A DNA stretch of 64,000 nt from Eledone cirrhosa (lineage: Eukaryota): assembly GCA_964016885.1 (NCBI GenBank), contig OZ024759.1, positions 2,666,001-2,730,000 on the forward strand, written 5' to 3'. Position numbers and translations under genes: made by a program. Shown piece after piece: positions 1-35,166 of this stretch; within the stretch, counting starts at the first letter, position 1; each line of letters begins with the position of its first letter. Below the pieces are notes generated by a model, which did no database searches, was not told the origin of the DNA, and was given only the letters and a program-made list of their open reading frames with translations.

Positions 1-3000
1 GTTACTCCCTCCTCACTAGTTGAGGTAACAAAGAGGTTAAAGTTCTGTTTCACCCATGTTTCTCCCTCCTCGCTAGTTGAGGTAACAAAGAGGTTAAATT
101 TCTGTTTCACCCATGTTTCTACCTCCTCACTAGTTGAGGTATCAAAGAGGTTAAAGTTCTGTTTCACCCATCTTTCTACCCCTTACTATTTGAGGTAACA
201 AAGAGGTTAAAGTTCTGTTTCACCCATGTTACTCCCTCCTCACTAGTTGAGGTAACAAAGAGGTTAAAGTTCTGTTTCACCCATGTTTCTCCCTCCTCAC
301 TAATTGAGGTAACAAAGAGGTTAAAGTTCTGTTTCACCCATGTTTCTACCTCCTCACTATTTGAGGTAACAAAGAGGTTAAAGTTCTGTTTCACCCATGT
401 TTCTCCACCCCTTACTAGTTGAGGTAACAAAGAGGTTTCTCACTCCATGCTTCTCCCTCCTTACTAGTTGAGGTAACAAAGAGGTTAAAGTTCTGTTTCA
501 CCCATGTTTCTCCCCCCTCACTAGTTGAGGTAAGAAAGAGGTTAAAGTTCTGTTTCACCCATGTTTCTCCCTCATCACTAGTTGAGGTAACAAAGAGGTT
601 AAAGTTCTGTTTCACCCATGTTTCTCCCTCCTCACTAGTTGAGGTAACAAAGAGGTTAAAGTTCTGTTTCACCCATGTTTCTCCTTCCTCACTAGTTGAG
701 GTAACAAAGAGGTTAAAGTTCTGTTTCACCCATGTTTCTCCCTCCTCACTAGTTGAGGTAACAAAGAGGTTAAAGTTCTATTTCACCCATGTTTCTCCCT
801 CCTCACTAGTTGAGGTAACAAAGAGGTTAAAGTTCTATTTCACCCATGTTTCTCTCGCCTTACTAGTTGGGGTAACAAAGAGGTTAATGTTCTGTTTCAC
901 CCATGTTTCTCCCTCCTCACTAGTTTAGGTAACAAAGAGGTTAAAGTTCTGTTTCACCCATGTTTCTACCTCCCCACTAGTTGAGGTAACAAAGAGGTTA
1001 AAGTTCTATTTCACCCATGTTTCTCTCTCCTTACTAGTTGGGGTAACAAAGAGGTTAATGTTCTGTTTCACCCATGTTTCTCCCTCCTCACTAGTTTAGG
1101 TAACAAAGAGGTTAAAGTTCTGTTTCACCCATCTTTCTTCCTCCACACCAGTTGAGGTAACAAAGAGGTTTCTCACTCCATGCTTCTCCCTCCTTACTAG
1201 TTGAGGTAACAAAGAGGTTAAAGTTCTGTTTCACCCATGTTGCTCCCCCCTCACTAGTTGAGGTAACAAAGAGGTTAAAGTTCTGATTCACCCATGTTTC
1301 TCCCCCCTCACTAGTTGAGGTAACAAAGAGGTTAAAGTTCTGTTTCACCCATGTTTCTCCCTCATCACTAGTTGAGGTAAAAAAGAGGTTAAAGATCTGT
1401 TTCACCCATGTTTCTCCCTCCTCCCTAGTTTAGGTAACAAAGAGGTTAAAGTTCTGTTTCAGCCATGTTTCTCCCTCCTCACTAGTTGAGGTAACAAATA
1501 GGTTCAAGTTCTGTTTCACCCATGTTTCTCCCTCCTCACTAGTTGAGGTAACAAAGAGGTTAAAGTTCTGTTTCACCCATGTTTCTCCCTCCTCACTAGT
1601 TGAGGTAACAAAGAGGTTAAAGTTCTGTTTCACCAATGTTTCTCCCTCCTCGCTAGTTGAGGTAACAAAGAGGTTAAAGTTCTGTTTTACCCATGTTTCT
1701 CCCTCCTCACTAGTTGAGGTAACAAAGAGGTTAAAGTTCTATTTAACCCATGTTTCTCCCTCCTTACTAGTTGAGGTAACAAAGAGGTTAAAGTTCTGTT
1801 TCACCCATGTTTCTCCCTCCTCACTAGTTTAGGTAACAAAGAGGTTAAAGTTCTGTTTCAGACATGTTTCTACCTCCTCACTAGTTGAGGTAGCAAAGAG
1901 GTTAAAGTTCTGTTTCACCCATGTTTCTACCTCCTCACTAGTTGAGGTAACAAAGAGGTTAAAGTTCTGTTTCACCCAGGTTTCTCCCTCCTTACTAGTT
2001 GAGGTAACAAAGAGGTTAAAGTTCTGTTTCACCCATGTTTCTCCCTCCTCACTAGTTTAGGTAACAAAGAGGTTAAAGTTCTCTTTCACCCATGTTTCTC
2101 CCTCCTCATTAGTTGAGGTAACAAAGAGGTTAAAGTTCTGTTTCACCCATGTTTCTCCCTCCTCACTAGTTGAGGTAACAAAGAGGTTAAAGTTCTGTTT
2201 CACCCATGTTTTTCCCTCCTCACTAGTTGAGGTAACAAAGAGGTTAAAGTTCTGTTTCACCCATGTTTCTACCTCCTCACTAGTTGAGGTAACAAAGAGG
2301 TTAAAGTTCTGTTTCACACATGTTTCTACCTCCTCACTATTTGAGGTAACAAAGAGGTTTCTCACTCCATGCTTCTCCCTCCTTACTAGTTGAGGTAACA
2401 AAGAGGTTAAAGTTCTGTTTCACCCATGTTTCTCCCCCCTCACTAGTTGAGGTAACAAAGAGGTTAAAGTTCTGTTTCACACATGTTTCTACCCCCTCAC
2501 TAGTTGAGGTAACAAAGAGGTTAAAGTTCTGTTTCACCCATGTTTCTCCCTCCTCACTAATTGAAATAACAAAGAGGTTAAAGTTCTGTTTCACCCATGT
2601 TTCTCCCTCCTCACTAATTGAGGTAACAAAGAGGTTAAAGTTCTGTTTCACCCATGTTTCTCCCTCCTCACTAATTGAGGTAACAAAGAGGTTAAAGTTC
2701 TGTTTCACACATGTTTCTACCCCCTCACTAGTTGAGGTAACAAAGAGGTTAAAGTTCTGTTTCACCCATGTTTCTCCCTCCTCACTAATTGAAATAACAA
2801 AGAGGTTAAAGTTCTGTTTCACCAATGTTTCTCCCTCCTCACTAATTGAGGTAACAAAGAGGTTAAAGTTCTGTTTCACCCATGTTTCTCCCTCCTCACT
2901 AATTGAGGTAACAAAGAGGTTAAAGTTCTGTTTCATCCATGTTTCTCCCTCCTCACTAGTTGAAGTAACAAAGAGGTTAAAGTTCTGTTTCACCCATGTT

Positions 3001-6000
3001 TCTCCCTCCTCACTAGTTGAGGTAATAAAGAGGTTAAAGTTCTATTTAACCCATGTTTCTCCCTCCTTACTAGTTGAGGTAACAAAGAGGTGAAAGTTCT
3101 GTTTCACCCATGTTTCTCCCTCCTCACTAGTTGAGGTAACAAAGAGGTTAAAGTTCTGTTTCACCAATGTTTCTCCCTCCTCGCTAGTTGAGGTAACAAA
3201 GAGGTTAAAGTTCTGTTTTACCCATGTTTCTCCCTCCTCACTAGTTGAGGTAACAAAGAGGTTAAAGTTCTATTTAACCCATGTTTCTCCCTCCTTACTA
3301 GTTGAGGTAACAAAGAGGTTAAAGTTCTGTTTCACCCATGTTTCTCCCTCCTCACTAGTTTAGGTAACAAAGAGGTTAAAGTTCTGTTTCAGCCATGTTT
3401 CTACCTCCTCACTAGTTGAGGTAGCAAAGAGGTTAAAGTTCTGTTTCACCCATGTTTCTACCTCCTCACTAGTTGAGGTAACAAAGAGGTTAAAGTTCTG
3501 TTTCACCCAGGTTTCTCCCTCCTTACTAGTTGAGGTAACAAAGAGGTTAAAGTTCTGTTTCACCCATGTTTCTCCCTCCTCACTAGTTTAGGTAACAAAG
3601 AGGTTAAAGTTCTCTTTCACCCATGTTTCTCCCTCCTCATTAGTTGAGGTTATAAAGAGGTTAAAGTTCTGTTTCACCCATGTTTCTCCCTCCTCACTAG
3701 TTGAGGTAACAAAGAGGTTAAAGTTCTGTTTCACCCATGTTTTTCCCTCCTCACTAGTTGAGGTAACAAAGAGGTTAAAGTTCTGTTTCACCCATGTTTC
3801 TACCTCCTCACTAGTTGAGGTAACAAAGAGGTTAAAGTTCTGTTTCACACATGTTTCTACCTCCTCACTATTTGAGGTAACAAAGAGGTTTCTCACTCCA
3901 TGCTTCTCCCTCCTTACTAGTTGAGGTAACAAAGAGGTTAAAGTTCTGTTTCACCCATGTTTCTCCACCCTCACTAGTTGAGGTAACAAAGAGGTTAAAG
4001 TTCTGTTTCACCCATGTTTCTACCCCCTCACTAGTTGAGGTAACAAAGAGGTTAAAGTTCTGTTTCACCCATGTTTCTCCCTCCTCACTAATTGAGATAA
4101 CAATGAGGTTAAAGTTCTGTTTCACCCATGTTTCTCCCTCCTCACTAATTGAGGTAACAAAGAGGTTAAAGTTCTGTTTCACCCATGTTTCTCCCTCCTC
4201 ACTAATTGAGGTAACAAAGAGGTTAAAGTTCTGTTTCACCCATTTTCTCCCTCCTCACTAATTGAGGTAACAAAGAGGTTAAAGTTCTGTTTCATCCATG
4301 TTTCTCCCTCCTCACTAGTTGAAGTAACAAAGAGGTTAAAGTTCTGTTTCACCCATGTTTCTCCCTCCTCACTAGTTGAGGTAATAAAGAGGTTAAAGTT
4401 CTATTTAACCCATGTTTCTCCCTCCTTACTAGTTGAGGTAACAAAGAGGTGAAAGTTCTGTTTCACCCATGTTTCTCCCTCCTCACTAGTTTAGGTAACA
4501 AAGAGGTTAAAGTTCTGTTTCACCCATGTTTCTACCTCCTCACTAGTTGAGGTAACAAAGAGGTTAAAGTTCTGTTTCACCCATGTTTCTACCTCCTCAC
4601 TAGTTGAGGTAACAAAGAGGTTAAAGTTCTGTTTCACCCATGTTTCTCCCTCCTCACTAGTTGAGGTAACAAAGAGGTTAAAGTTCTGTTTCACCCATGT
4701 TTCTCCCTCCTCACTAGTTTAGGTAACAAAGAGGTTAAAGTTCTGTTTCACCCATGTTTCTACCACCTCACTATTTGAGGTAACAAAGAGGTTAAAGTTC
4801 TGTTTCACCCATGTTTCTCCCTCCTCGCTAGTTGAGGTAACAAAGAGGTTAAAGTTCTGTTTCACCCATGTTTCTCCCTCCTCACTAGTTGAGGTAACAA
4901 AGAGGTTAAAGTTCTGTTTCACCCATCTTTCTACCCCTTACTATTTGAGGTAACAAAGAGGTTAAAGTTCTGTTTCACCCATGTTTCTCCCTCCTCACTA
5001 GTTGAGGTAACAAAGAGGTTAAAGTTCTGTTTCACCCATGTTTCTCCCTCCTCGCTAGTTGAGGTAACAAAGAGGTTAAAGTTCTGTTTCACCCATGTTT
5101 CTACCTCCTCACTAGTTGAGGTAACAAAGAGGTTAAAGTTCTGTTTCACCCATCTTTCTACCCCTTACTATTTGAGGTAACAAAGAGGTTAAAGTTCTGT
5201 TTCAGCCATGTTACTCCCTCCTCACTAGTTGAGGTAACAAAGAGGTTAAAGTTCTGTTTCACCCATGTTTCTCCCTCCTCACTAATTGAGGTAACAAAGA
5301 GGTTAAAGTTCTGTTTCACCCATGTTTCTACCTCCTCACTATTTGAGGTAACAAAGAGGTTAAAGTTCTGTTTCACCCATGTTTCTCCACCTCTTACTAG
5401 TTGAGGTAACAAAGAGGTTTCTCACTCCATGCTTCTCCCTCCTTACTAGTTGAGGTAACAAAGAGGTTAAAGTTCTGTTTCATCCATGTTGCTCCCCCCC
5501 TCACTTACTGAGGTAACAAAGAGGTTAAAGTTCTGTTTCACCCATGATTCTCCCCCCTCACTAGTTGAGGTAACAAAGAGGTTAAAGTTCTGTTTCACCC
5601 ATGTTTCTCCCTCATCACTAGTTGAGGTAACAAAGAGGTTAAAGTTCTGTTTCACCCATGTTTCTCCCTCCTCACTAGTTGAGGTAACAAAGAGGTTAAA
5701 GTTCTGTTTCACCCATGTTTCTCCTTCCTCACTAGTTGAGGTAACAAAGAGGTTAAAGTTCTGTTTCACCCATGTTTCTCCCTCCTCACTAGTTGAGGTA
5801 ACAAAGAGGTTAAAGTTCAATTTCACCCATGTTTCTCCCTCCTCACTAGTTGAGGTAACAAAGAGGTTAAAGTTCTATTTCACCCATGTTTCTCTCTCCT
5901 TACTAGTTGGGGTAACAAAGAGGTTAATGTTCTGTTTCACCCATGTTTCTCCCTCCTCACTAGTTTAGGTGACAAAGAGGTTAAAGTTATGTTTCACCCA

Positions 6001-9000
6001 TCTTTCTTCCTCCTCACTAGTTGAGGTAACAAAGAGGTTTCTCACTCCATGCTTCTCCCTCCTTACTAGTTGAGGTAACAAAGAGGTTAAAGTTCTGTTT
6101 CACCCATGTTGCTCCCCCCTCACTAGTTGAGGTAACAAAGAGGTTAAAGTTCTGATTCACCCATGTTTCTCCCCCCTCACTAGTTGAGGTAACAAAGAGG
6201 TTAAAGTTCTGTTTCCCCCATGTTTCTCCCTCATCACTAGTTGAGGTAAAAAAGAGGTTAAAGATCTGTTTCACCCATGTTTCTCCCTCCTCACTAGTTG
6301 AGGTAACAAAGAGGTTAAAGTTCTGTTTCACCCATGTTTCTCCCTCCTCACTAGTTGAGGTAACAAAGAGGTTAAAGTTCTGTTTCACCCATGTTTCTAC
6401 CCCCCTCACTAGTTGAGGTAAAAAAGAGGTTAAAGTTCTCTTTCACCCATGTTTCTCCCTCCTCACTAATTGAGGTAACAAAGAGGTTACAGTTCTATTT
6501 AACCCATGTTTCTCCCTCCTTACTAGTTGAGGTAACAAAGAGGTTAAAGTTCTGTTTCACCCATGTTTCTCCCCCCTCACTAGTAGAGGTAACAAAGAGG
6601 TTAAAGTTCTATTTAACCCATGTTTCTCCCTCCTTACTAGTTGAGGTAACAAAGAGCTTAAAGTTCTGTTTCACCCATGTTTCTCCCTCCTCACTAGTTT
6701 AGGTAACAAAGAGGTTAAAGTTCTGTTTCAACCATGTTTCTACCTCCTCACTAGTTGAGGTAACAAAGAGGTTAAAGTTCTGTTTCACCCATGTTTCTAC
6801 CTCCTCACTAATTGAGGTAACAAAGAGGTTAAAGTTCTGTTTCACCCATGTTTCTCCCTCCTTACTAGTTGAGGTAACAAAGAGGTTAAAGTTCTGTTTC
6901 ACCCATGTTTCTTCCTCCTCACTAGTTTAGGTAACAAAGAGGTTAAAGTTCTGTTTCACCCATGTTTCTACCTCCTCACTAGTTGAGGTAACAAAGAGGT
7001 TAAAGTTCTGTTTCACCCATGTTTCTCCCTCCTCACTAGTTGAGGTAACAAAGAGGTTAAAGTTCTGTTTCACCCATGTTTCTCCCTCCTCACTAGTTGA
7101 GGTAACAAAGAGGTTAAAGTTCTGTTTCACCCATGTTTCTCCCTCCTCACTAGTTGAGGTAACAAAGAGGTTAAAGTTCTGTTTCACCCATGTTTCTCCC
7201 TCCTCACTAGTTGAGGTAACAAAGAGGTTAAAGTTCTGTTTCACCCATGTTTCTACCACCTCACTATTTGAGGTAACAAAGAGGTTAAAGTTCTGTTTCA
7301 CCCATGTTTCTCCCTCCTCGCTAGTTGAGGTAACAAAGAGGTTAAAGTTCTGTTTCACCCATGTTTCTCCCTCCTCACTAGTTGAGGTAACAAAGAGGTT
7401 AAAGTTCTGTTTCACCCATCTTTCTACCCCTTACTATTTGAGGTAACAAAGAGGTTAAAGTTCTGTTTCACCCATGTTACTCCCTCCTCACTAGTTGAGG
7501 TAACAAAGAGGTTAAAGTTCTGTTTCACCCATGTTTCTCCCTCCTCGCTAGTTGAGGTAACAAAGAGGTTAAATTTCTGTTTCAACCATGTTTCTACCTC
7601 CTCACTAGTTGAGGTATCAAAGAGGTTAAAGTTCTGTTTCACCCATCTTTCTACCCCTTACTATTTGAGGTAACAAAGAGGTTAAAGTTCTGTTTCACCC
7701 ATGTTACTCCCTCCTCACTAGTTGAGGTAACAAAGAGGTTAAAGTTCTGTTTCACCCATGTTTCTCCCTCCTCACTAATTGAGGTAACAAAGAGGTTAAA
7801 GTTCTGTTTCACCCATGTTTCTACCTCCTCACTATTTGAGGTAACAAAGAGGTTAAAGTTCTGTTTCACCCATGTTTCTCCACCCCTTACTAGTTGAGGT
7901 AACAAAGAGGTTTCTCACTCCATGCTTCTCCCTCCTTACTAGTTGAGGTAACAAAGAGGTTAAAGTTCTGTTTCACCCATGTTTCTCCCCCCTCACTAGT
8001 TGAGGTAAGAAAGAGGTTAAAGTTCTGTTTCACCCATGTTTCTCCCTCATCACTAGTTGAGGTAACAAAGAGGTTAAAGTTCTGTTTCACCCATGTTTCT
8101 CCCTCCTCACTAGTTGAGGTAACAAAGAGGTTAAAGTTCTGTTTCACCCATGTTTCTCCTTCCTCACTAGTTGTGGTAACAAAGAGGTTAAAGTTCTGTT
8201 TCACCCATGTTTCTCCCTCCTCACTAGTTGAGGTAACAAAGAGGTTAAAGTTCTATTTCACCCATGTTTCTCCCTCCTCACTAGTTGAGGTAACAAAGAG
8301 GTTAAAGTTCTATTTCACCCATGTTTCTCTCTCCTTACTAGTTGGGGTAACAAAGAGGTTAATGTTCTGTTTCACCCATATTTCTCCCTCCTCACTAGTT
8401 TAGGTAACAAAGAGGTTAAAGTTCTGTTTCACCCATGTTTCTACCTCATCACTAGTTGAGGTAACAAAGAGGTTAAAGTTCTATTTCACCCATGTTTCTC
8501 TATCCTTACTAGTTGGGGTAACAAAGAGGTTAATGTTCTGTTTCACCCATGTTTCTCCCTCCTCACTAGTTTAGGTAACAAAGAGGTTAAAGTTCTGTTT
8601 CACCCATCTTTCTACCTCCACACCAGTTGAGGTAACAAAGAGGTTTCTCACTCCATGCTTCTCCCTCCTTACTAGTTGAGGTAACAAAGAGGTTAAAGTT
8701 CTGTTTCACCCATGTTGCTCCCCCCTCACTAGTTGAGGTAACAAAGAGGTTAAAGTTCTGATTCACCCATGTTTCTCCCCCCTCACTAGTTGAGGTAACA
8801 AAGAGGTTAAAGTTCTGTTTCACCCATGTTTCTCCCTCATCACTAGTTGAGGTAAAAAAGAGGTTAAAGATCTGTTTCACCCATGTTTCTCCCTCCTCAC
8901 TAGTTGAGGTAACAAAGAGGTTAAAGTTCTGTTTCACCCATGTTTCTACCTCCTCACTAGTTGAGGTAACAAAGAGCTTAAAGTTCTGTTTCACCCATGT

Positions 9001-12000
9001 TTCTACCTCCTCACTAGTTGAGGTAACAAAGAGGTTAAAGTTCTGTTTCACCCATGTTTCTCCCTCCTCACTAGTTGATGTAACAAAGAGGTTAAAGTTC
9101 TGTTTCACCCATGTTTCTCCCTCCTCACAAGTGAGGTAACAAAGAGGTTAAAGTTCTGTTTCACCCATCTTTCTACCTCCTCACTAGTTTAGGTAACAAA
9201 GAGGTTAAAGTTCTGTTTCACCCATGTTTCTACCTCCTCACTAGTTGAGGTAACAAAGAGGTTAAATTTCTGTTTCACCCATGTTTCTCCCTCCTTACTA
9301 GTTGAGGTAACAAAGAGGTTTCTCACTCCATGCTTCTCCCTCCTTACTAGTTGAGGTAACAAAGAGGTTAAAGTTCTGTTTCACCAATCTTTCTCCCTCC
9401 TCACTAATTGAGGTAACAAAGAGGTTAAAGTTCTGTTTCATCCATGTTTCTCCCTCCTCACTAGTTGAGGTAACAAAGAGGTTAAAGTTCTATTTAACCC
9501 ATGTTTCTACCTCCTTACTAGTTGAGGTAACAAAGAGGTTAAAGTTCTGTTTCACCAATGTTTCTCCCTCCTCACTAGTTTAGGTAACAAAGAGGTTAAA
9601 GTTCTGTTTCGCCCATGTTTCTACCTCCTCACTAGTTGAGGTAACAAAGAGGTTAAAGTTCTGTTTGACCCATGTTTCTACCTCCTCACTAGTTGAGGTA
9701 ACAAAGAGGTTAAAGTTCTGTTTCACCCATGTTTCTCCCTCCTTACTATATGAGGTAACAAAGAGGTTAAAGTTCTGTTTCACCCATGTTTCTCCCTCCT
9801 CACTAGTTGAGGTAACAAAGAGGTTAAAGTTCTGTTTCACCCGTGTTTCTCCCTCCTCACTAGTTGAGGTAACAAAGAGGTTAAAGTTCTGTTTCACCCA
9901 TGTTTCTACCTCCTCACTATATGAGTTAACAAAGAGGTTAAAGTTCTGTTTCACCCATGTTTCTCCCCCCTCACTAGTTGAGGTAACAAAGAGGTTAAAG
10001 TTCTGTTTCACCCATGTTTCTCCCTCATCACTAGTTGAGGTAACAAAGAGTTTAAAGTTCTGTTTCACCCATGTTTCTCCCTCCTCACTAGTTGAGGTAA
10101 CAAAGAGGTTAAAGTTCTATTTCACCCATGTTTCTCTCTCCTTACTAGTTGAGGTAACAAAGAGGTTAAAGTTCTGTTTCACCCATGTTTCTCCCTCCTC
10201 ACTAGTTTAGGTAACAAAGAGGTTAAAGTTCTGTTTCACCCATGTTTCTACCTCCTCACTAGTTGAGGTAACAAAGAGGTTAAAGTTCTGTTTCACCCAT
10301 GTTTCTACCTCCTCACTAGTTGAGGTAACAAAGAGGTTAAAGTTCTGTTTCACCCATGTTTCTCCCTCCTCACTAGTTGATGTAACAAAGAGGTTAAAGT
10401 TCTGTTTCACCCATGTTTCTCCCTCCTCACTAGTTGAGGTAACAAAGAGGTTAAAGTTCTGTTTCACCCATCTTTCTACCTCCTCACTAGTTTAGGTAAC
10501 AAAGAGGTTAAAGTTCTGTTTCACCCATGTTTCTCCACCTCTTACTAATTGAGGTAACAAAGAGGTTTCTCACTCCATGCTTCTCCCTCCTTACTAGTTG
10601 AGGTAACAAAGAGGTTAAAGTTCTGTTTCATCCATGTTGCTCCCCCCCTCACTTACTGAGGTAACAAAGAGGTTAAAGTTCTGTTTCACCCATGATTCTC
10701 CCCCCTCCCTCGTTGAGGTAACAAAGAGGTTAAAGTTCTGTTTCACCCATGTTTCTCCCTCATCACTAGTTGAGGTAACAAAGAGGTTAAAGTTCTGTTT
10801 CACCCATGTTTCTCCCTCCTCACTAGTTGAGGTAACAAAGAGGTTAAAGTTCTGTTTCACCCATGTTTCTCCTTCCTCACTAGTTGAGGTAACAAAGAGG
10901 TTAAAGTTCTGTTTCACCCATGTTTCTCCCTCCTCACTAGTTGAGGTAACAAAGAGGTTAAAGTTCAATTTCACCCATGTTTCTCCCTCCTCACTAGTTG
11001 AGGTAACAAAGAGGTTAAAGTTCTATTTCACCCATGTTTCTCTCTCCTTACTAGTTGGGGTAACAAAGAGGTTAATGTTCTGTTTCACCCATGTTTCTCC
11101 CTCCTCACTAGTTTAGGTGACAAAGAGGTTAAAGTTATGTTTCACCCATCTTTCTTCCTCCTCACTAGTTGAGGTAACAAAGAGGTTTCTCACTCCATGC
11201 TTCTCCCTCCTTACTAGTTGAGGTAACAAAGAGGTTAAAGTTCTGTTTCACCCATGTTGCTCCCCCCTCACTAGTTGAGGTAACAAAGAGGTTAAAGTTC
11301 TGATTCACCCATGTTTCTCCCCCCTCACTAGTTGAGGTAACAAAGAGGTTAAAGTTCTGTTTCCCCCATGTTTCTCCCTCATCACTAGTTGAGGTAAAAA
11401 AGAGGTTAAAGATCTGTTTCACCCATGTTTCTCCCTCCTCACTAGTTGAGGTAACAAAGAGGTTAAAGTTCTGTTTCACCCATGTTTCTCCCTCCTCACT
11501 AGTTGAGGTAACAAAGAGGTTAAAGTTCTGTTTCACCCATGTTTCTACCCCCCTCACTAGTTGAGGTAAAAAAGAGGTTAAAGTTCTCTTTCACCCATGT
11601 TTCTCCCTCCTCACTAATTGAGGTAACAAAGAGGTTACAGTTCTATTTAACCCATGTTTCTCCCTCCTTACTAGTTGAGGTAACAAAGAGGTTAAAGTTC
11701 TGTTTCACCCATGTTTCTCCCCCCTCACTAGTAGAGGTAACAAAGAGGTTAAAGTTCTATTTAACCCATGTTTCTCCCTCCTTACTAGTTGAGGTAACAA
11801 AGAGCTTAAAGTTCTGTTTCACCCATGTTTCTCCCTCCTCACTAGTTTAGGTAACAAAGAGGTTAAAGTTCTGTTTCAACCATGTTTCTACCTCCTCACT
11901 AGTTGAGGTAACAAAGAGGTTAAAGTTCTGTTTCACCCATGTTTCTACCTCCTCACTAATTGAGGTAACAAAGAGGTTAAAGTTCTGTTTCACCCATGTT

Positions 12001-15000
12001 TCTCCCTCCTTACTAGTTGAGGTAACAAAGAGGTTAAAGTTCTGTTTCACCCATGTTTCTTCCTCCTCACTAGTTTAGGTAACAAAGAGGTTAAAGTTCT
12101 GTTTCACCCATGTTTCTACCTCCTCACTAGTTGAGGTAACAAAGAGGTTAAAGTTCTGTTTCACCCATGTTTCTCCCTCCTCACTAGTTGAGGTAACAAA
12201 GAGGTTAAAGTTCTGTTTCACCCATGTTTCTCCCTCCTCACTAGTTGAGGTAACAAAGAGGTTAAAGTTCTGTTTCACCCATGTTTCTCCCTCCTCACTA
12301 GTTGAGGTAACAAAGAGGTTAAAGTTCTGTTTCACCCATGTTTCTCCCTCCTCACTAGTTGAGGTAACAAAGAGGTTAAAGTTCTGTTTCACCCATGTTT
12401 CTACCACCTCACTATTTGAGGTAACAAAGAGGTTAAAGTTCTGTTTCACCCATGTTTCTCCCTCCTCGCTAGTTGAGGTAACAAAGAGGTTAAAGTTCTG
12501 TTTCACCCATGTTTCTCCCTCCTCACTAGTTGAGGTAACAAAGAGGTTAAAGTTCTGTTTCACCCATCTTTCTACCCCTTACTATTTGAGGTAACAAAGA
12601 GGTTAAAGTTCTGTTTCACCCATGTTACTCCCTCCTCACTAGTTGAGGTAACAAAGAGGTTAAAGTTCTGTTTCACCCATGTTTCTCCCTCCTCGCTAGT
12701 TGAGGTAACAAAGAGGTTAAATTTCTGTTTCAACCATGTTTCTACCTCCTCACTAGTTGAGGTATCAAAGAGGTTAAAGTTCTGTTTCACCCATCTTTCT
12801 ACCCCTTACTATTTGAGGTAACAAAGAGGTTAAAGTTCTGTTTCACCCATGTTACTCCCTCCTCACTAGTTGAGGTAACAAAGAGGTTAAAGTTCTGTTT
12901 CACCCATGTTTCTCCCTCCTCACTAATTGAGGTAACAAAGAGGTTAAAGTTCTGTTTCACCCATGTTTCTACCTCCTCACTATTTGAGGTAACAAAGAGG
13001 TTAAAGTTCTGTTTCACCCATGTTTCTCCACCCCTTACTAGTTGAGGTAACAAAGAGGTTTCTCACTCCATGCTTCTCCCTCCTTACTAGTTGAGGTAAC
13101 AAAGAGGTTAAAGTTCTGTTTCACCCATGTTTCTCCCCCCTCACTAGTTGAGGTAAGAAAGAGGTTAAAGTTCTGTTTCACCCATGTTTCTCCCTCATCA
13201 CTAGTTGAGGTAACAAAGAGGTTAAAGTTCTGTTTCACCCATGTTTCTCCCTCCTCACTAGTTGAGGTAACAAAGAGGTTAAAGTTCTGTTTCACCCATG
13301 TTTCTCCTTCCTCACTAGTTGTGGTAACAAAGAGGTTAAAGTTCTGTTTCACCCATGTTTCTCCCTCCTCACTAGTTGAGGTAACAAAGAGGTTAAAGTT
13401 CTATTTCACCCATGTTTCTCCCTCCTCACTAGTTGAGGTAACAAAGAGGTTAAAGTTCTATTTCACCCATGTTTCTCTCTCCTTACTAGTTGGGGTAACA
13501 AAGAGGTTAATGTTCTGTTTCACCCATATTTCTCCCTCCTCACTAGTTTAGGTAACAAAGAGGTTAAAGTTCTGTTTCACCCATGTTTCTACCTCATCAC
13601 TAGTTGAGGTAACAAAGAGGTTAAAGTTCTATTTCACCCATGTTTCTCTATCCTTACTAGTTGGGGTAACAAAGAGGTTAATGTTCTGTTTCACCCATGT
13701 TTCTCCCTCCTCACTAGTTTAGGTAACAAAGAGGTTAAAGTTCTGTTTCACCCATCTTTCTACCTCCACACCAGTTGAGGTAACAAAGAGGTTTCTCACT
13801 CCATGCTTCTCCCTCCTTACTAGTTGAGGTAACAAAGAGGTTAAAGTTCTGTTTCACCCATGTTGCTCCCCCCTCACTAGTTGAGGTAACAAAGAGGTTA
13901 AAGTTCTGATTCACCCATGTTTCTCCCCCCTCACTAGTTGAGGTAACAAAGAGGTTAAAGTTCTGTTTCACCCATGTTTCTCCCTCATCACTAGTTGAGG
14001 TAAAAAAGAGGTTAAAGATCTGTTTCACCCATGTTTCTCCCTCCTCACTAGTTGAGGTAACAAAGAGGTTAAAGTTCTGTTTCACCCATGTTTCTACCTC
14101 CTCACTAGTTGAGGTAACAAAGAGCTTAAAGTTCTGTTTCACCCATGTTTCTACCTCCTCACTAGTTGAGGTAACAAAGAGGTTAAAGTTCTGTTTCACC
14201 CATGTTTCTCCCTCCTCACTAGTTGATGTAACAAAGAGGTTAAAGTTCTGTTTCACCCATGTTTCTCCCTCCTCACAAGTGAGGTAACAAAGAGGTTAAA
14301 GTTCTGTTTCACCCATCTTTCTACCTCCTCACTAGTTTAGGTAACAAAGAGGTTAAAGTTCTGTTTCACCCATGTTTCTACCTCCTCACTAGTTGAGGTA
14401 ACAAAGAGGTTAAATTTCTGTTTCACCCATGTTTCTCCCTCCTTACTAGTTGAGGTAACAAAGAGGTTTCTCACTCCATGCTTCTCCCTCCTTACTAGTT
14501 GAGGTAACAAAGAGGTTAAAGTTCTGTTTCACCAATCTTTCTCCCTCCTCACTAATTGAGGTAACAAAGAGGTTAAAGTTCTGTTTCATCCATGTTTCTC
14601 CCTCCTCACTAGTTGAGGTAACAAAGAGGTTAAAGTTCTATTTAACCCATGTTTCTACCTCCTTACTAGTTGAGGTAACAAAGAGGTTAAAGTTCTGTTT
14701 CACCAATGTTTCTCCCTCCTCACTAGTTTAGGTAACAAAGAGGTTAAAGTTCTGTTTCGCCCATGTTTCTACCTCCTCACTAGTTGAGGTAACAAAGAGG
14801 TTAAAGTTCTGTTTGACCCATGTTTCTACCTCCTCACTAGTTGAGGTAACAAAGAGGTTAAAGTTCTGTTTCACCCATGTTTCTCCCTCCTTACTATATG
14901 AGGTAACAAAGAGGTTAAAGTTCTGTTTCACCCATGTTTCTCCCTCCTCACTAGTTGAGGTAACAAAGAGGTTAAAGTTCTGTTTCACCCGTGTTTCTCC

Positions 15001-18000
15001 CTCCTCACTAGTTGAGGTAACAAAGAGGTTAAAGTTCTGTTTCACCCATGTTTCTACCTCCTCACTATATGAGTTAACAAAGAGGTTAAAGTTCTGTTTC
15101 ACCCATGTTTCTCCCCCCTCACTAGTTGAGGTAACAAAGAGGTTAAAGTTCTGTTTCACCCATGTTTCTCCCTCATCACTAGTTGAGGTAACAAAGAGTT
15201 TAAAGTTCTGTTTCACCCATGTTTCTCCCTCCTCACTAGTTGAGGTAACAAAGAGGTTAAAGTTCTATTTCACCCATGTTTCTCTCTCCTTACTAGTTGA
15301 GGTAACAAAGAGGTTAAAGTTCTGTTTCACCCATGTTTCTCCCTCCTCACTAGTTTAGGTAACAAAGAGGTTAAAGTTCTGTTTCACCCATGTTTCTACC
15401 TCCTCACTAGTTGAGGTAACAAAGAGGTTAAAGTTCTGTTTCACCCATGTTTCTACCTCCTCACTAGTTGAGGTAACAAAGAGGTTAAAGTTCTGTTTCA
15501 CCCATGTTTCTCCCTCCTCACTAGTTGATGTAACAAAGAGGTTAAAGTTCTGTTTCACCCATGTTTCTCCCTCCTCACTAGTTGAGGTAACAAAGAGGTT
15601 AAAGTTCTGTTTCACCCATCTTTCTACCTCCTCACTAGTTTAGGTAACAAAGAGGTTAAAGTTCTGTTTCACCCATGTTTCTACCTCCTCATTAGTTGAG
15701 GTAACAAAGAGGTTAAAGTTCTGTTTCACCCATGTTTCTCCCTCCTCACTAGTTGATGTAACAAAGAGGTTAAAGTTCTGTTTCACCCATGTTTCTCCCT
15801 CCTCACTAGTTGAGGTAACAAAGAGGTTAAAGTTCTGTTTCACCCATCTTTCTACCTCCTCACTAGTTTAGGTAACAAAGAGGTTAAAGTTCTGTTTCAC
15901 CCATGTTTCTACCTCCTCACTAGTTGAGGTAACAAAGAGGTTAAATTTCTGTTTCACCCATGTTTCTCCCTCCTTACTAGTTGAGGTAACAAAGAGGTTT
16001 TTCACTCCATGCTTCTCCCTCCTTACTAGTTGAGGTAACAAAGAGGTTAAAGTTCTGTTTCACCCATCTTTCTCCCTCCTCACTAATTGAGGTAACAAAG
16101 AGGTTAAAGTTCTGTTTCATCCATGTTTCTCCCTCCTCACTAGTTGAGGTAACAAAGAGGTTAAAGTTCTGTTTCACCCATGTTTCTCCCTCCTCACTAG
16201 TTGAGGTAACAAAGAGGTGAAAGTTCTATTTAACCCATGTTTCTCCCTCCTTACTAGTTGAGGTAACAAAGAGGTTAAAGTTCTGTTTCACCAATGTTTC
16301 TCCCTCCTCACTAGTTTAGGTAACAAAGAGGTTAAAGTTCTGTTTCACCCATGTTTCTACCTCCTCACTAGTTGAGGTAACAAAGAGGTTAAAGTTCTGT
16401 TTCACCCATGTTTATACCTCCTCACTAGTTGAGGTAACAAAGAGGGTAAAGTTCTGTTTCACCCATGTTTCTCCCTCCTCACTAGTTGAGGTAACAAAGA
16501 GGTTAAAGTTCTGTTTCACCCATGTTTCTACCTCCTCACTATATGAGGTAACAAAGAGGTTAAAGTTCTGTTTCACCCATGTTTCTCCCTCCTCACTAGT
16601 TGAGGTAACAAAGAGGTTAAAGTTCTGTTTCACCCATGTTTCTCCCTCATCACTAGTTGAGGTAACAAAGAGTTTAAAGTTCTGTTTCACCCATGTTTCT
16701 CCCTCCTCACTAGTTGAGGTAACAAAGAGGTTAAAGTTCTATTTCACCCATGTTTCTCTCTCCTTACTAGTTGAGGTAACAAAGAGGTTAAAGTTCTGTT
16801 TCACCCATGTTTCTCTCTCCTCACTAGTTTAGGTAACAAAGAGGTTAAAGTTCTGTTTCACCCATGTTTCTACCTCCTCACTAGTTGAGGTAACAAAGAG
16901 GTTAAAGTTCTGTTTCACCCATGTTTCTCCCTCCTCACTAGTTGAGGTAACAAAGAGGTTAAAGTTCTGTTTCACCCATGTTTCTCCCTCCTCACTAGTT
17001 GATGTAACAAAGAGGTTAAAGTTCTGTTTCACCCATGTTTCTCCCTGCTCACTATTTGAGGTAACAAAGAGGTTAAAGTTCTGTTTCACCCATGTTTCTA
17101 CCTCCTCACTAGTTTAGGTAACAAAGAGGTTAAAGTTCTATTTCACCCATGTTTCTACCTCCTCACTAGTTGAGGTAACAAAGAGGTTAAAGTTCTGTTT
17201 CACCCATGTTTCTCCCTTCTCACTAGTTTAGGTAACAAAGAGGTTAAAGTTCTGTTTCACCCATGTTTCTACCTCCTCACTAGTTTAGGTAACAAAGAGG
17301 TTAAAGTTCTGTTTCACCCATGTTTCTCCCTCCTCACTAGTTTAGGTAACAAAGATGTTAAAGTTCTGTTTCACCCATGTTTCTACCTCCTCACTAGTTG
17401 AGGTAACAAAGAGGTTAAAGTTCTGTTTCACCCATGTTTCTCCCTCCTCACTAGTTTAGGTAACAAAGAGGTTAAAGTTCTGTTTCACCCATGTTTCTAC
17501 CTCCTCACTAGTTGAGGTAACAAAGAGGTTAAAGTTCTGTTTCAACCATGTTTCTACCTCCTCACTAGTTGAGGTAACAAAGAGGTTAAAGTTCTGTTTC
17601 ACCCATGTTTCTCCCTCCTCACTAGTTTAGGTAACAAAGAGTTTAAAGTTCTGTTTCACCCATGTTTCTACCTCCTCACTAGTTTAGGTAACAAAGAGGT
17701 TAAAGTTCTGTTTCACCCATGTTTCTCCCTCCTCACTAGTTTAGGTAACAAAGAGGTTAAAGTTCTGTTTCACCCATGTTTCTACCTCCTCACTAGTTGA
17801 GGTAACAAAGAGGTTAAAGTTCTGTTTCACCCATGTTTCTCCCTCCTCACTAGTTTAGGTAACAAAGAGGTTAAAGTTCTGTTTCACCCATGTGTCTACC
17901 TCCTCACTAGTTTAGGTAACAAAGAGGTTAAAGTTCTGTTTCACCCATGTTTCTCCCTCCTCACTAGTTTAGGTAACAAAGAGGTTAAAGTTCTGTTTCA

Positions 18001-18481
18001 CCCATGTTTCTACCTCCTCACTAGTTTTAGGTAACAAAGAGGTTAAAGTTCTGTTTCACCCATGTTTCTACCTCCTCACTAGTTGAGGTAACAAAGAGGT
18101 TAAAGTTCTGTTTCAGCCATGTTTCTCCCTCCTCACTAGTTTAGGTAACAAAGAGGTTAAAGTTCTGTTTCACCCATGTTTCTACCTCCTCACTAGTTGA
18201 GGTAACAAAGAGGCTAAAGTTCTGTTTCACCCATGTTTCTCCCTCCTCACTAGTTGTGGTAACAAAGAGGTTAAAGTTCTGTTTCACCCATGTTTCTCCC
18301 CCCTTACTAGTTGAGGTAACAAACAGGTTAAAGTTCTGTTTCACCCATGTTTCTACCTCCTCACTAGTTGAGGTAACAAAGAGGTTAAAGTTCTGTTTCA
18401 CCCATGTTTCTACCTCCTCACTAGTTGAGGTAACAAAGAGGTTAAAGTTCTGTTTCACCCATGTTTCTCCTCCCTCACTAG
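1..18481. repeat. 57-bp tandem satellite array (~325 units in window, continues off the left edge), intronic
   Basis: Consensus GTAACAAAGAGGTTAAAGTTCTGTTTCACCCATGTTTCTCCCTCCTCACTAGTTGAG repeats continuously. About 15 copies of a 49-bp variant (GGTTTCTCACTCCATGC) are interspersed. The array ends at CTAG 18478-18481. Confidence 0.98.
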
Positions 18482-18633
18482 TCGCCACCTTCAATTCAGA
18501 ATATTATAAAACTATGCTTGATGAGGAGACTGACTTTATGAGACCAAACTCTCTGAAGGCTTTCAAGAAAGAAGAGCGGTTGATGAAGATTGAAGAACAG
18601 AAATCCAAAAGATCAATTAAATCACCTCCAAAG
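18482..18633 (+). CDS. SPAG17: Coding exon, probable SPAG17/PF6 central-apparatus protein
   Basis: ctag|TCGCC acceptor and AAG|gtaaga donor; 152 nt encoding xATFNSEYYKTMLDEETDFMRPNSLKAFKKEERLMKIEEQKSKRSIKSPPK. It ends in phase 0, compatible with the exon at 32589. Gene identity is inferred from the downstream exons. Confidence 0.62.
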
Positions 18634-21335: not shown

Positions 21336-21344
21336 TAAATATCT

Positions 21345-30922: not shown

Positions 30923-31839
30923 ATATATCTAAAACAGAGAATGTCTGTCTGTCTGACTCCCTAAAACTCGAGAACCACCCAACCGATTGTTTTCAAACTT
31001 TACACATGTAATACTTATGGTCCTGTGAGTGTTTGTGATCAAAGAATATTTCAAATTTTCAATGCCCTAGAGACCGCATTAGGCGATTTAGCGATCTCTC
31101 TCTATAATTCTTAGTCTTTCTTTTTAGATAGATACATAGATATAACGTTGCACCCTTATAATATCTGTCTGTATGTCTGGCAGTCTACATTACGACATTA
31201 TGACGTTATATGCGTGTGTGTGTGTGTGTATATATATATAGTGTGTAACGTTTTTCGAAATATTTATTTCTGCGTTCACAGATTGATTTTTTTAGTTTCA
31301 GAAGATCCCGTCAAGGGTGAAAGCAGCGATACTTTGCTTAAACTTTAATCTGTTATTTTAATATATATATATATATATATATGTAAAGTTATATTTAAAA
31401 TTGTTGGGTTATAACTAGTAAATATTTATAACTGATATAAAAGCACTCGACAAATATTTGGAGTATATTTACAATATTAAATAAATGGAAAACTATATTT
31501 ATAAAACCATATCTATTTCATTATATATATTTCGGGGATATCATATTAACAATATGCTATGCCTTCATCAGACAAAATACAATATAAACAGTTTTATAGA
31601 TAAATATATTCGACATACCGTAATAAACATCAACTTCATTTGAAGAGGTTTACGCTAGCGTAAACCTCTTCAAATGAAGTTGATGTTTATTACGGTATGT
31701 CGAATATATTTATCTATAAAACTGTTTATATTGTATTTTGTCTGATGAAGGCATAGCATATTGTTAATATGATATCCCCGAAATATATATAATGAAATAG
31801 ATATGGTTTTATAAATATAGTTTTCCATTTATTTAATAT

Positions 31840-31876
<37 letters not shown>

Positions 31877-32009
31877 TCATGTACAGATATTTTTGCATAC
31901 ACAATAACAAAATATAAACATACGTATTTATTTCAAGAGGCTCGATAAGGATAAACAAATATATAAGAACCCTAGAGCAAATCCCGAGCAAAGCCGGGCC
32001 ATTCTGCTA

Positions 32010-32010
<1 letters not shown>
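30920..32010 (+). mobile_element. Non-autonomous Helitron-like element with nested insertions
   Basis: 5' AAAACAGAGAATGTCTGTCTG resembles the start of the 22890 element. 3' end is CCCGAGCAAAGCCGGG...CTGCTAG|T. Confidence 0.55.
31470..31843. repeat. 374-bp perfect palindrome with no spacer
   Basis: Centre TACGCT|AGCGTA at 31656/31657. The 187-bp arms are reverse complements as far as I can read, and each carries a CTGATGA...GAAA motif. Confidence 0.93.
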
Positions 32011-32044
<34 letters not shown>

Positions 32045-32045
<1 letters not shown>

Positions 32046-32320
32046 ATAAGGAGTTGAAGGACCCAGCATATTTATCAATGCCAGAACCGGTTGTATGTCA
32101 GCGTACTCAATAGGTAATGTAGGATACATTCCCAGAGTATACACATAGTTATTTACTTCAATACAACACACGTAAATGGGTGCCTGTAGTAGTTTCAGGA
32201 CTCGAGTTTCGGCCACACTTAATGTAGCAGTAGGCTGCACTGCACCATCCATCTGCATATATTATGCAACAATGTATAACCAGTGCATGTGGCTTCATCA
32301 GTGGGTATCACCTTTCTTAA
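32045..32320 (-). mobile_element. Interspersed repeat with hammerhead-like core
   Basis: Minus strand CTGATGA (32295-32301), stem II GCCACA/TGTGGC, then GAAA-C-TCGA-G-TC (32199-32210). Stem I is decayed. Confidence 0.6.
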
Positions 32321-32588
32321 CCATTTACTTTAACTATATACATATATATAAGATTCAAAAGTAAAAGGTTAAGGAAGGTAAAAGAGTGCAATTATGTATA
32401 GAAAGGAGAAGTTTTCGGTGCATAAAAAGACTCAGTAAAGGGAAGAAGTCAATAAGTGAATAATATAGGTGTAATATAAAATAAGTGTTGAATGTGTGTG
32501 TTGGGTGTGATGAAAGTGGAGGCTGATTGAAATAAGAGAGAGTGTTGAAGGTAAAATAGTGTAATTATATATATCTGCTATATTTCAG

Positions 32589-32735
32589 TTGGATAAATCC
32601 CCAGATAAAGACAGAAGGATTACTAGCAGAGCCAGTATCAGGAGTACAAGAATTGGTCGAGTCAAGTCAAATTATGATAGTGTTACGGACCTTGGAGCCT
32701 TTGCAGACTCTGATATTGAGGAAACTGATTTACCT
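32589..32735 (+). CDS. SPAG17: Coding exon, probable SPAG17
   Basis: tatttcag|TTG acceptor and CCT|gtaatt donor; 147 nt, phase 0-0. Encodes LDKSPDKDRRITSRASIRSTRIGRVKSNYDSVTDLGAFADSDIEETDLP. Confidence 0.68.
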
Positions 32736-32749
32736 GTAATTATCTCACC

Positions 32750-32935
32750 TCTCTCATCCATATCTCTCTCTCTCTGTCTCTCTTTCATCCCTCTCTCACT
32801 CTCTCTCTCTCTCTTTCTCATCCCTCTTTCTCTCTCTCTCATCCTCCTCTCTCTCTTATCCCTTATTTCTCTCTCATCCATGTCTCTCTCTCTCTCTCTC
32901 TGTCACATTTACCTTCTCTCCCTGTCCCTCTCTTC
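32750..32935. repeat. Degenerate (CT)n low-complexity tract
   Basis: Read directly. Confidence 0.8.
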
Positions 32936-33049
32936 TAATACACATGATATACAGAATATATTACTACGTTTTATATATATGTAGTATCTTATATTACTAC
33001 ATGTTATATATATAATATCTCATTATAGTTCATCGTAATACACTTATGT

Positions 33050-33976
33050 TGCCATGTTATATGCATGTGACATTTCACAATACTACGTGATGTTTCACTA
33101 TATATTCTATATGGTATCTCACAATTGTACATGTGATATTTCACAATACTACATGTGATGTCTCACTATATATACTATATGGTATCTCACAATGTTACAT
33201 GTTACACTACATGTAATATCTCACACCTATATGTGACACTAAATGTGATATCTCACACCTATATGTGACACTAAATGTGATATTTCACTTTATGCAACAT
33301 TTATGCTACATTTTGTAATACCTCACTATACTACATGCTGTAATACCTCTCTATACTACATGTAATACCTCACTATACTATGTGTTGTAATACCTCACTA
33401 TACTACATATTGTAATACCTCACTATACTACAGGTAATACCTCTATACTACATGTAATACCTCTATACTACATGTAATACCTCTATACTACATGTAATAC
33501 CTCACTATACTACATGCTGTAATACCTCACTATACTACATGTTGTAATACGTCACTATACTACATGTTGTAATACCTCACTATACTACATGTTGTAATAT
33601 GTCACTATACTACATGTTGTAATACCTCACTATACTACATGTAATGCCTCACTATACTACATGTTGTAATACCTCTCTATACAACATGTAATACCTCACT
33701 ATACTACATGTTGTAATACCTCTCTATACAACATGTAATACCTCACTATACTACATGTTGTAATACCTCTCTATACAACATGTAACACCTCACTATGCTA
33801 CATGTTATAACACCTCACTATGCTACATGTTATAACACCTCACTATGCTACATGTTATAACATCTCACTATGCTACATGTTATAACACCTCACTATGCTA
33901 CATGTTATAACATCTCACTATGCTTCATGTTTTAATACCTCACTATGCTACATGTAATATCTCACACCCTCTACAG
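33050..33976. repeat. 22/25-bp minisatellite filling most of the 1241-bp intron
   Basis: Unit GTAATACCTCACTATACTACAT(GTT). The terminal unit GTAATATCTCACACCCTCTACAG (33954-33976) ends at the acceptor. Confidence 0.9.
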
Positions 33977-34088
33977 TTCTCAGGTTACAGGATGGACGAC
34001 AACCTCACCAAATTAACCAGTAAATGTTATACGTTGTTTCCCTATGATGGATCCCAGATCCGTGTCTTATCGGAGCAGTTCCTATGTG
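33977..34088 (+). CDS. SPAG17: Coding exon, SPAG17/PF6-like
   Basis: ctacag|TTC and TGTG|gtaaac; 112 nt, phase 0-1. FSGYRMDDNLTKLTSKCYTLFPYDGSQIRVLSEQFLC resembles the SPAG17 segment GYxMG...(F/Y)PSDGGQI as I recall it. Confidence 0.78.
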
Positions 34089-34203
34089 GTAAACCAACCA
34101 TTTAAACTTGTTCTTTATTTATTTATTCATTTATTTATTATTCACAGTTGCTTATTTTTCACTTATGAAAACAGTAAAAAAACATCCTGTGGGATAAAAC
34201 TTC

Positions 34204-34409
34204 TTAACCCGTTAGCATTTAAACTGGCCAGAATTTTCTCACATCTCTCTGTTCAAACCAGCTGTAACTGGCTACTCATACTGATGTTAAAGTATTGTTC
34301 TCAATAATATCAAAATTTCATAGATTCGATATTATGTGAGATAATTTTAAAGCCTTTACCATGGAAATATAATAGTATATAGAGAGTATTGTAAATGATA
34401 AAGGGTTAA
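34204..34409. mobile_element. TTAA-flanked MITE (piggyBac-type ends)
   Basis: TTAACCCGTTAGCATTTA ... TAAATGATAAAGGGTTAA inverted termini (2 mismatches in 18). Confidence 0.72.
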
Positions 34410-34723
34410 ACAACCTGCTGAACATTCAGGTGTGAGCTGTGTCAACAACAATAAGATGCTAGGACTGCAGCCCCTATCATTAAAACACCTGAGAAACCTT
34501 TTATGAGAAACCAGCTAAACATACATAGGTGTGAGCTGTAACAACATGAGAGGACTGGAGCCCCTATCATTAAAGCACCTGAGAAACCTCCAATGAGATA
34601 TAACCTCATAGAAAGACAGCTAGACCTACATAAGTGTGTGTCATAAATTTTATATTTTTCTTCCCATTAGACCCAGTGATCATATATTCTCCATCCCCAC
34701 CCATCCCTACACTCTGTAACATC

Positions 34724-34934
34724 TTAAAACCTTTAACATTTAAACCAGTCATATCCGGCCAGAATTTTCTCACCTCTTTCTCTTCAAACTAGCTGTAACT
34801 GGCCTCTCATACTGAGGTTAAGGTATTGTTCTCAAAATAAATGATAGCAAAATCTTGTAGATTCAATATTATGTGAGATAATTATGTGAGGTAAAGACTT
34901 TACCACGAAAATGTAATAGTAAATATAATGTTAA
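34724..34934. mobile_element. Second, more decayed copy of the same MITE
   Basis: Shares GGCCAGAATTTTCTCAC, AGCTGTAACTGGC and ATATTATGTGAGATAATT with 34204-34409. Confidence 0.65.
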
Positions 34935-35028
34935 ACTGTAACCCTGTCATTGTTGGTCCCCCTCTTCCTCTACACCTCCAATGACTACAGAGACATCAAT
35001 ATAATAAAGGGTTTCTTGTAATGTCCAG

Positions 35029-35166
35029 GTCCAAAGCATGTGAGATGTTCGGTGTTAGTAAATGGCCACGTGTTCACTGTACACCTGATGAACCCAACAG
35101 ATGATGAAGCTCTTGAACCTGATGTCTTCCCTTCATCTCCCATGAAACTTAGTTCACCAAGTTCAG
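35029..35166 (+). CDS. SPAG17: Coding exon, SPAG17/PF6-like
   Basis: gtccag|GT and TCAG|gtaagc; 138 nt, phase 1-1. (G)PKHVRCSVLVNGHVFTVHLMNPTDD... continues the recalled SPAG17 motif GPxxxxxxVxKDxHxFxxHLxDP. Confidence 0.78.

Follow-up and report, generated by a model that had tools for sequence, protein, structure and literature searches.

A 57-nt satellite in an Eledone cirrhosa SPAG17 intron ends on the predicted acceptor of the following exon

Introduction

How does an intron come to be filled with near-copies of its own 3′ splice site, and which of them would be used? The question arises from a 64,000-nt stretch of the Eledone cirrhosa genome (the window; contig OZ024759.1, hereafter C20, positions 2,666,001-2,730,000, in an assembly of 3.0 Gb), in which a 57-nt tandem array runs up to a coding exon. 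Should splicing follow the predicted exons, the spliceosome would travel past about 3,000 sites nearly identical to the true acceptor, spread over 244 kb, before settling on the final one. The locus would then set exon definition against first-come acceptor choice in an extreme form provided by nature. An earlier note on this DNA took the array for an 18-kb satellite built from a miniature intron of a SPAG17-like gene, and offered silent decoys, poison microexons and stepping stones as possible uses of its units. Here, we established the extent of the array, its confinement to a single locus, both of its ends, the identity of the gene, the exon phases and the spectrum of unit variants, and we weighed how such an array may have formed.

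Results

A single-locus satellite of 244 kb

Tandem Repeats Finder (TRF) on the window gave a period of 57 at positions 1-18482 with 326.4 copies and 92% matches, and the unit, TTGAG/GTAACA...TTTCACCCATGTTTCTCCCTCCTCACTAG, agreed with the one described before, as did the estimate of about 325 units. The AG/TTGAG/GT junction that had been ascribed to each of these units is indeed present, but not in every one: the window contains exact AG-TTGAG-GT 213 times and AG-TTTAG-GT 42 times. The length of 18 kb was an underestimate. The whole array occupies C20:2,440,119-2,684,481, that is 244,363 nt or about 4,300 units (4,295 parsed), uninterrupted and with zero N, and the window shows its last 7.6%. 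The median identity of the units to the commonest copy is 55/57, and a search of the 4,295 units for a higher-order period found none (best lag 0.138 versus a median of 0.097). Since a 23-nt word from the unit has 2,384 exact matches genome-wide, and all 2,384 fall inside this array, the 57-mer is a single-locus satellite. The array starts with ATGTTTCTACCTCCTCACTA and ends with ATGTTTCTCCTCCCTCACTAG, both on the same ~21-nt pyrimidine-tract block, the first unit is truncated, and the variant seen in the terminal unit occurs once in the whole array.

Of the three sense frames of the unit, that of the exon is the one without a stop, and 57 nt correspond to 19 codons. The terminal in-frame run comprises four acceptors, and as many are found at 22% of sites. 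A coding satellite was considered and rejected, as the lengths of open runs are geometric and the terminal run is ordinary.

The array lies within SPAG17

The features of the window, with the kind of evidence for each, are as follows.

1..18481, plus strand: last 18.5 kb of the 57-nt-unit array, which fills a 244,517-nt SPAG17 intron with its donor at C20:2,439,965, outside the window
18425..18481, plus strand: terminal unit with the predicted exon acceptor and a pyrimidine-tract variant found once in the array (sequence, variant count)
18429..18445, minus strand: 17-mer (holding the donor-like GAG/GTAACA on the plus strand) resembling the terminus of a dispersed TTAA-CCC-type repeat family (15/17 match)
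18453..18481, plus strand: predicted branch point TTTCAC (A at 18457, position -25), pyrimidine tract and TAG (sequence; acceptor score 6.0)
18482..18633, plus strand: SPAG17 coding exon (open frame, homology, in phase with the upstream exon)
32589..32735, plus strand: next SPAG17 exon (homology, phase)
33977..34088, plus strand: SPAG17 exon, its acceptor preceded at 22 nt by the end of a 25/47-mer minisatellite (homology, phase)
35029..35166, plus strand: SPAG17 exon, followed by a 51-kb intron (homology, phase)

In a stricter first look, whose count is a floor, 20 of 20 matches of Octopus sinensis SPAG17 isoform X1 lay on the plus strand of C20 in protein order. An exon upstream of the array matched mouse SPAG17 (9IJJ, E = 8.5e-6) as well as SPAG17 of O. 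vulgaris and O. sinensis, and exon identities to the Octopus proteins were 40-87%, which fits another octopod. The colinear matches and the mouse match together confirm the gene as SPAG17 (PF6), a gene of the sperm tail. A second SPAG17 locus was sought in the genome and not found, in a search that is itself a floor.

The window exon is 152 nt long, has one of three frames open (ATFNSEYY...KSPPK) and ends in AAG/GTAAGA. It shares 26 of 51 residues (51%) with O. sinensis isoform X2 in a pairwise comparison (E = 2e-11), starting where SNVNSE of X2 starts, and the phase-1 upstream exon fits onto it (C/TC = Leu), in keeping with the phase compatibility claimed previously. On its own the window exon gave nothing in the homolog search, nothing in PDB and one weak Pfam match below the cut-off; one upstream exon was also unmatched in PDB. 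Because O. sinensis isoforms vary at this junction, with one residue more or less and a form shorter by 25 residues, the junction is already alternatively spliced in the RefSeq annotation of that species.

Placing 25 exons by hand near tblastn ends, we obtained 23 in-phase junctions of 24 between open exons; for one acceptor, near C20:2,757,890, no site could be assigned. The matched exons span C20:111,745-2,857,654, at least 2.75 Mb, within 0.11 Mb of the scaffold end, and about 350 C-terminal residues were not located. With a coding length of ~6 kb, taken from the O. vulgaris protein, the locus is more than 99% non-coding. Between window positions 21339 and 62740, the 14-kb and 51-kb introns contain many retroelement-like open frames on both strands, the longest of 940 codons (40417-43236), which we take to be of LINE type from their motifs.

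The donor lies outside the array

The upstream exon (C20:2,439,759-2,439,964) ends in CGC/GTAAGT, phase 1, and not in TTGAG. The true donor junction at C20:2,439,964/5 is 154 nt before the first 57-mer unit, and the array opens on the pyrimidine-tract block of ATGTTTCTACCTCCTCACTA instead of a GT. Because the array starts 154 nt past the donor and not at a GT, the donor of this intron was not amplified. As such, the left end does not coincide with the GT of the previous exon, and a satellite built from a miniature intron is contradicted by a true GTAAGT donor outside the array and an upstream exon without a TTGAG end. The shortest of the 24 introns measured in SPAG17 is 449 nt. Short-read contigs from two of three runs bridged the exon, the donor and the array start; these contigs are DNA-like, unspliced and from one sample, possibly that of the assembly itself, and so may not be independent. 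The ~60 nt immediately left of the array had very deep short-read contig cover and therefore belong to another abundant repeat, which has a few bases in common with the array start.

The last unit carries the predicted acceptor, and the spare acceptors are eroded

The array stops exactly at the AG before the exon (18480-18481), as had been noted. The predicted branch point, the pyrimidine tract and the AG of the exon all lie within the last unit, which would thus supply the 3′ splice region as proposed, and this acceptor half of the earlier idea appears to be real; TTTCAC at -25 is taken to be the branch point by its resemblance to the consensus. Splice sites were scored with matrices built from the 25 donors of SPAG17 and its 24 other acceptors, a small training set. 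The terminal acceptor scored 6.0, within the range of the real acceptors of the gene.

Upstream of it, the array holds about 3,000 near-identical acceptors, consistent with the previous description. YAG is kept in 3,001 of 4,295 units and GT is intact in 4,194 of 4,295, and the spare YAG acceptors score like weak real ones (4.5, the 25th percentile). The acceptor G is altered in 27.4% of the 4,295 units (T 804, gap 139, C 133, A 102) in comparison to 1.7-6.0% for the other nine G columns of the unit, a result that did not change when the alignment phase was rotated. Such erosion does not fit a needed signal and argues against one. It may be drift, considering that the copies of an array are not independent and that unit position 45, a C/A site, varies even more (40%), and selection is not proven. 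When independent AG losses were estimated by clustering, position 57 came second among the 57 positions, but the method over-splits common alleles and was not used as proof of selection. The units closest to the exon keep the AG best: among the 40 exact-length units at this end 39 have it, where the median is 29 (39 is reached in 0.4% of windows). This is the reverse of selection against nearby competitors. Pseudo-exons within the array would be 5+57k nt long, and all of them shift the frame. At the consensus AG/GT junction (GAG/GT) the acceptor score was only -0.5, and the TAG 5 nt upstream shadows it; a TAG/GTAA variant is present in 130 of the 4,295 units.

The donor-like motif probably came from a transposon end

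The donor-like GAG/GTAACA of the unit scored 6.4, compared with a median of 6.0 for real donors. Among 5,000 shuffles 6.8% reached this score, and so did 4 of the gene's 33 other arrays; the motif is only modestly unusual. The unit acceptor (4.5) was matched by 26% of shuffles, and both scores jointly by 1.7%. The 17-mer that holds the motif agrees on the minus strand at 15 of 17 positions with the end of a dispersed repeat family, a fit equalled by none of 20,000 shuffles in a post hoc test for which the repeat-end motif was picked after the unit had been seen. This repeat-end motif has 2,556 exact genome matches versus 0 for its reversed control. Exact copies of the 17-mer number 2,685 in the array and 14 outside it, and all 12 of the listed copies outside C20 continue into the interior of the dispersed repeat; the likeness of the unit to the repeat end stops at 17 nt. 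Based on these matches, the 17-mer likely originated from a transposon end, presumably of a piggyBac-type MITE given its TTAA-CCC terminus, and the donor-like motif is likely a passenger from it, not a duplicated donor.

Other arrays of the gene and a 2.29-Mb intron

A second intron of SPAG17 is larger still. One exon ends at C20:145,624 and the next starts at 2,430,885, leaving a phase-0 intron of 2,285,260 nt that is filled by a 23-mer array (C20:155,252-2,427,948, 2.27 Mb). Reading covered ~5% of the array, and 45 of 45 spot samples consisted of the 23-mer, always in the same orientation and free of N. The 32,909 forward matches counted across the genome agree with extrapolations of 31,400-35,100. 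The 23-mer contains no splice-like sites (donor 0.6, acceptor -4.1). The unit is confined almost wholly to this intron: reverse-strand matches number 605 genome-wide, and a small second array lies on the reverse strand of another contig, C1, from 437,826,300 to at least 437,841,000, and is absent by 437,855,001.

Smaller arrays sit at splice sites of the same gene. A 63-mer of 3.2 copies at C20:136,181-136,380 duplicates a SPAG17 acceptor with ~20 exon bases three times, and one of its two decoys has changed AG to AT; it is a classic 'mirage' minisatellite of the amphioxus kind (see Discussion), an older, small-scale example in the same gene. A 43-mer of 2.9 copies (C20:2,752,542-2,752,663) lies just past the donor at 2,752,525, and its CACAG/GT-like sites resemble that junction. 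Since 5 of the 33 other SPAG17 arrays overlap an acceptor or end within 40 nt of one, the birth of repeats near splice sites is routine in this gene. A 48-mer built on the end of the dispersed repeat is found as three arrays in introns (C20:2,795,505-2,819,981, 2,758,100-2,758,886 and 2,761,938-2,762,162), the largest with 512 copies over 24.5 kb and ending 35 nt before an acceptor; part of this 48-mer resembles the 23-mer. Five further, unrelated intron arrays on C20, of 2-17 kb each, have units of 15 nt (112,261-125,828), 15 nt (2,775,037-2,791,620), 30 nt (2,746,917-2,752,243), 35 nt (2,831,082-2,835,726) and 48 nt (2,436,000-2,438,170).

As a control, we paired dynein heavy-chain loci by hand, and 19 of 19 spanned 36-453 kb (median 110 kb), measured from DHC_N2 to Dynein_C with the N-terminal third excluded and one Dynein_C match unpaired. 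Given these spans, gigantism is not general among the dynein genes here, and their ordinary size suggests that repeats grew locally, near a scaffold end, and not under a programme. At C19:6.70-6.84 Mb, two dynein heavy-chain copies in opposite orientation have equal scores for several exons, next to an unpaired C-terminal match; the pair is either a recent inverted duplication or an assembly duplicate.

Discussion

We consider it probable that an originally short intron had its last 57 nt duplicated in tandem, that the array grew to about 4,300 copies by unequal exchange and that its spare acceptors are skipped. The first duplication may have occurred between short direct repeats, as one and the same ~21-nt pyrimidine-tract block stands at both ends of the array, and the direction, from a short intron to an array, would follow the same reading. 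Growth to ~4,300 copies was likely by unequal exchange. Early on, choice of a wrong upstream acceptor would merely have lengthened the protein, because 57 nt make 19 codons and the unit is stop-free in the frame of the exon; this openness is weak evidence for a softened first duplication, given that the terminal open run is ordinary (22% of sites). At present, silence would be explained by the surroundings of the last acceptor, the only one followed by a purine-rich exon of 152 nt with its own AAG/GTAAGA donor (purines make up 58% of the exon, which has 3 GAAGA, and 44% of the unit, which has none), and by the pseudo-exons inside the array, which shift the frame and would be degraded. Considering that the G of the spare acceptors is the most eroded G of the unit and that internal pseudo-exons shift the frame, the spare acceptors are likely silent. 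Among the three uses proposed in the earlier note, silent decoys thus seem the likeliest, and use as stepping stones or microexons is disfavored.

The case for stepping stones, in which AG...GT pairs would excise the 244-kb intron piecemeal by recursive splicing or intra-splicing, is built on the donor-like 9-mer of every unit (6.4 against the real median of 6.0), the GT intact in 4,194 of 4,295 units, the rarity of donor and acceptor together (1.7% of shuffles) and the 130 units whose TAG/GTAA looks like a ratchet point. We regard it as unlikely, seeing that the consensus GAG/GT acceptor reaches only -0.5 in the shadow of the TAG 5 nt upstream and that the acceptor G has eroded more than any other G. 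Moreover, giant introns here apparently do without such sites, since the 2.29-Mb intron of the same gene lacks them (donor 0.6, acceptor -4.1). Leaky or regulated use, by which in-frame extensions of 19 residues or frame-shifting poison exons would tune SPAG17, for example outside the testis, is improbable to about the same degree. Within 340 nt upstream there are four acceptors that are in frame and free of stops, the AG is kept in the units beside the exon (39/40), and pseudo-exons of 62, 119 and 176 nt are on offer thousands of times; against this, the in-frame run is no longer than chance (22%), the O. sinensis and O. vulgaris isoforms examined, from other species, contain no such insert, and pseudo-sites are reported to be silent in the mirage and F7 precedents.

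It is quite unlikely, in our estimation, that a satellite with its origin in a transposon end expanded as far as the exon and displaced an older acceptor, the exon then taking the AG of the unit. Such a capture would account for the 17 nt shared with a dispersed repeat end, has a parallel in the repeat-end 48-mer that fills 24.5 kb of another intron and halts 35 nt from an acceptor, and would ask little of chance, as 26% of shuffled units have an equally good acceptor. The repeat-end match is limited to 17 nt, however, the unit is found nowhere else in the genome (2,384/2,384 matches in the array), and the junction is positioned as in O. sinensis isoform X2. That SPAG17 is no longer one transcript, having been silenced or split by the arrays, or that the array lengths are assembly errors, we hold to be very unlikely. 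The lengths do come from one assembly, and a small second 23-mer array exists on C1, but the examined exons are open, ordered and on one strand, with no second locus found in a floor search, the 57-mer array is gap-free with heterogeneous units, the 45 of 45 samples of the 23-mer array share one orientation with no N, and short-read contigs of 2/3 runs, possibly from the sample of the assembly, bridge exon, donor and array start.

A bolder view, to which we give slender but slightly better odds than to stepping stones, is that the SPAG17 of this octopod corresponds, in a mollusc, to the Drosophila Y-loop genes, whose satellite introns form transcribed loops in spermatocytes; transcription would run through 2.5 Mb of satellite, with thousands of AG-GT pairs of the 57-mer working as stepping stones or poison exons. 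If a stepping-stone or poison-exon reading were true, a satellite would be working as splicing machinery. Under runaway duplication with silent decoys, which we prefer, mirage-type duplication is extended from a handful of amphioxus units to satellite scale in a cephalopod.

A recursive splice site, or ratchet point, is a strong YAG directly followed by a donor within a long intron, and its use is marked by saw-tooth nascent RNA and junction reads. The 57-mer resembles such sites in having AG and GT close together inside a long intron. It differs in that the strong AG is 5 nt from the GT, the direct AG/GT has a weak GAG acceptor, and the AG is eroded, not conserved.

The mirage unit of the Adh gene is reportedly self-complementary, and mirages vary in length among haplotypes. 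The 57-mer forms no hairpin and is not self-complementary (folding -7.1 versus -7.4 +/- 2.5 for shuffles).

Splice signals within repeat units have been described before. Amphioxus mirage minisatellites are known in Adh3, the globins BflGb6 and BflGb9, TnC and PGBD5, and are reported not to disturb splicing (PMC3087553, PMC3902484). The literature we covered, which leaves most subscription papers outside, showed neither a satellite-filled intron in a cephalopod nor an acceptor-bearing array that reaches this size. As in mirages, a splice boundary is duplicated head-to-tail, many but not all units keep AG/GT, the unit size is in range (10-72 bp in Adh3) and the boundary units are unlike the interior. 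The tandem units carry the signal of the adjacent real boundary, with the last unit ending at the exon AG and YAG in 3,001/4,295, and they evolve in concert with distinct boundary units (median 55/57, terminal variant once, first unit truncated). In contrast, there are ~4,300 units over 244 kb here, compared with the 3-6 units given for BflGb6, the unit ends at the AG with at most 1-3 exon bases (exon TCGCC, units TTGAG), the host is a cephalopod, and splicing is predicted from sequence. Exon sequence is part of the globin mirage unit and of the separate 63-mer of SPAG17, but not, beyond these 1-3 nt at most, of the 57-mer. As two mirage features are missing, exon sequence in the unit and self-complementarity, the 57-mer is a mirage variant rather than a member.

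In the 37-bp VNTR of intron 7 of human F7, the unit also holds a real splice site, and identical donor copies are reported to be silent (PMC1557585). The 57-mer shares with it a repeat unit that contains a splice site, here a predicted acceptor. F7 presents the donor side, few copies and a true site that is met first, whereas the true acceptor of the 57-mer intron comes last of ~3,000.

Megabase satellite introns in axonemal genes are documented for kl-3 and kl-5 on the Drosophila Y (PMC6508621, PMC11207136). SPAG17 is similar to what these sources describe in encoding an axonemal protein, being more than 99% non-coding and having a megabase single-satellite intron, of 2.29 Mb, and it spans at least 2.75 Mb compared with at least 4.3 Mb for kl-3. 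Its units of 23 and 57 nt are not simple 5-mers, and the dynein genes of this genome, unlike the Drosophila case, are not gigantic. With its 2.29-Mb single-satellite intron, this axonemal gene apparently extends Drosophila-like intron gigantism to another phylum.
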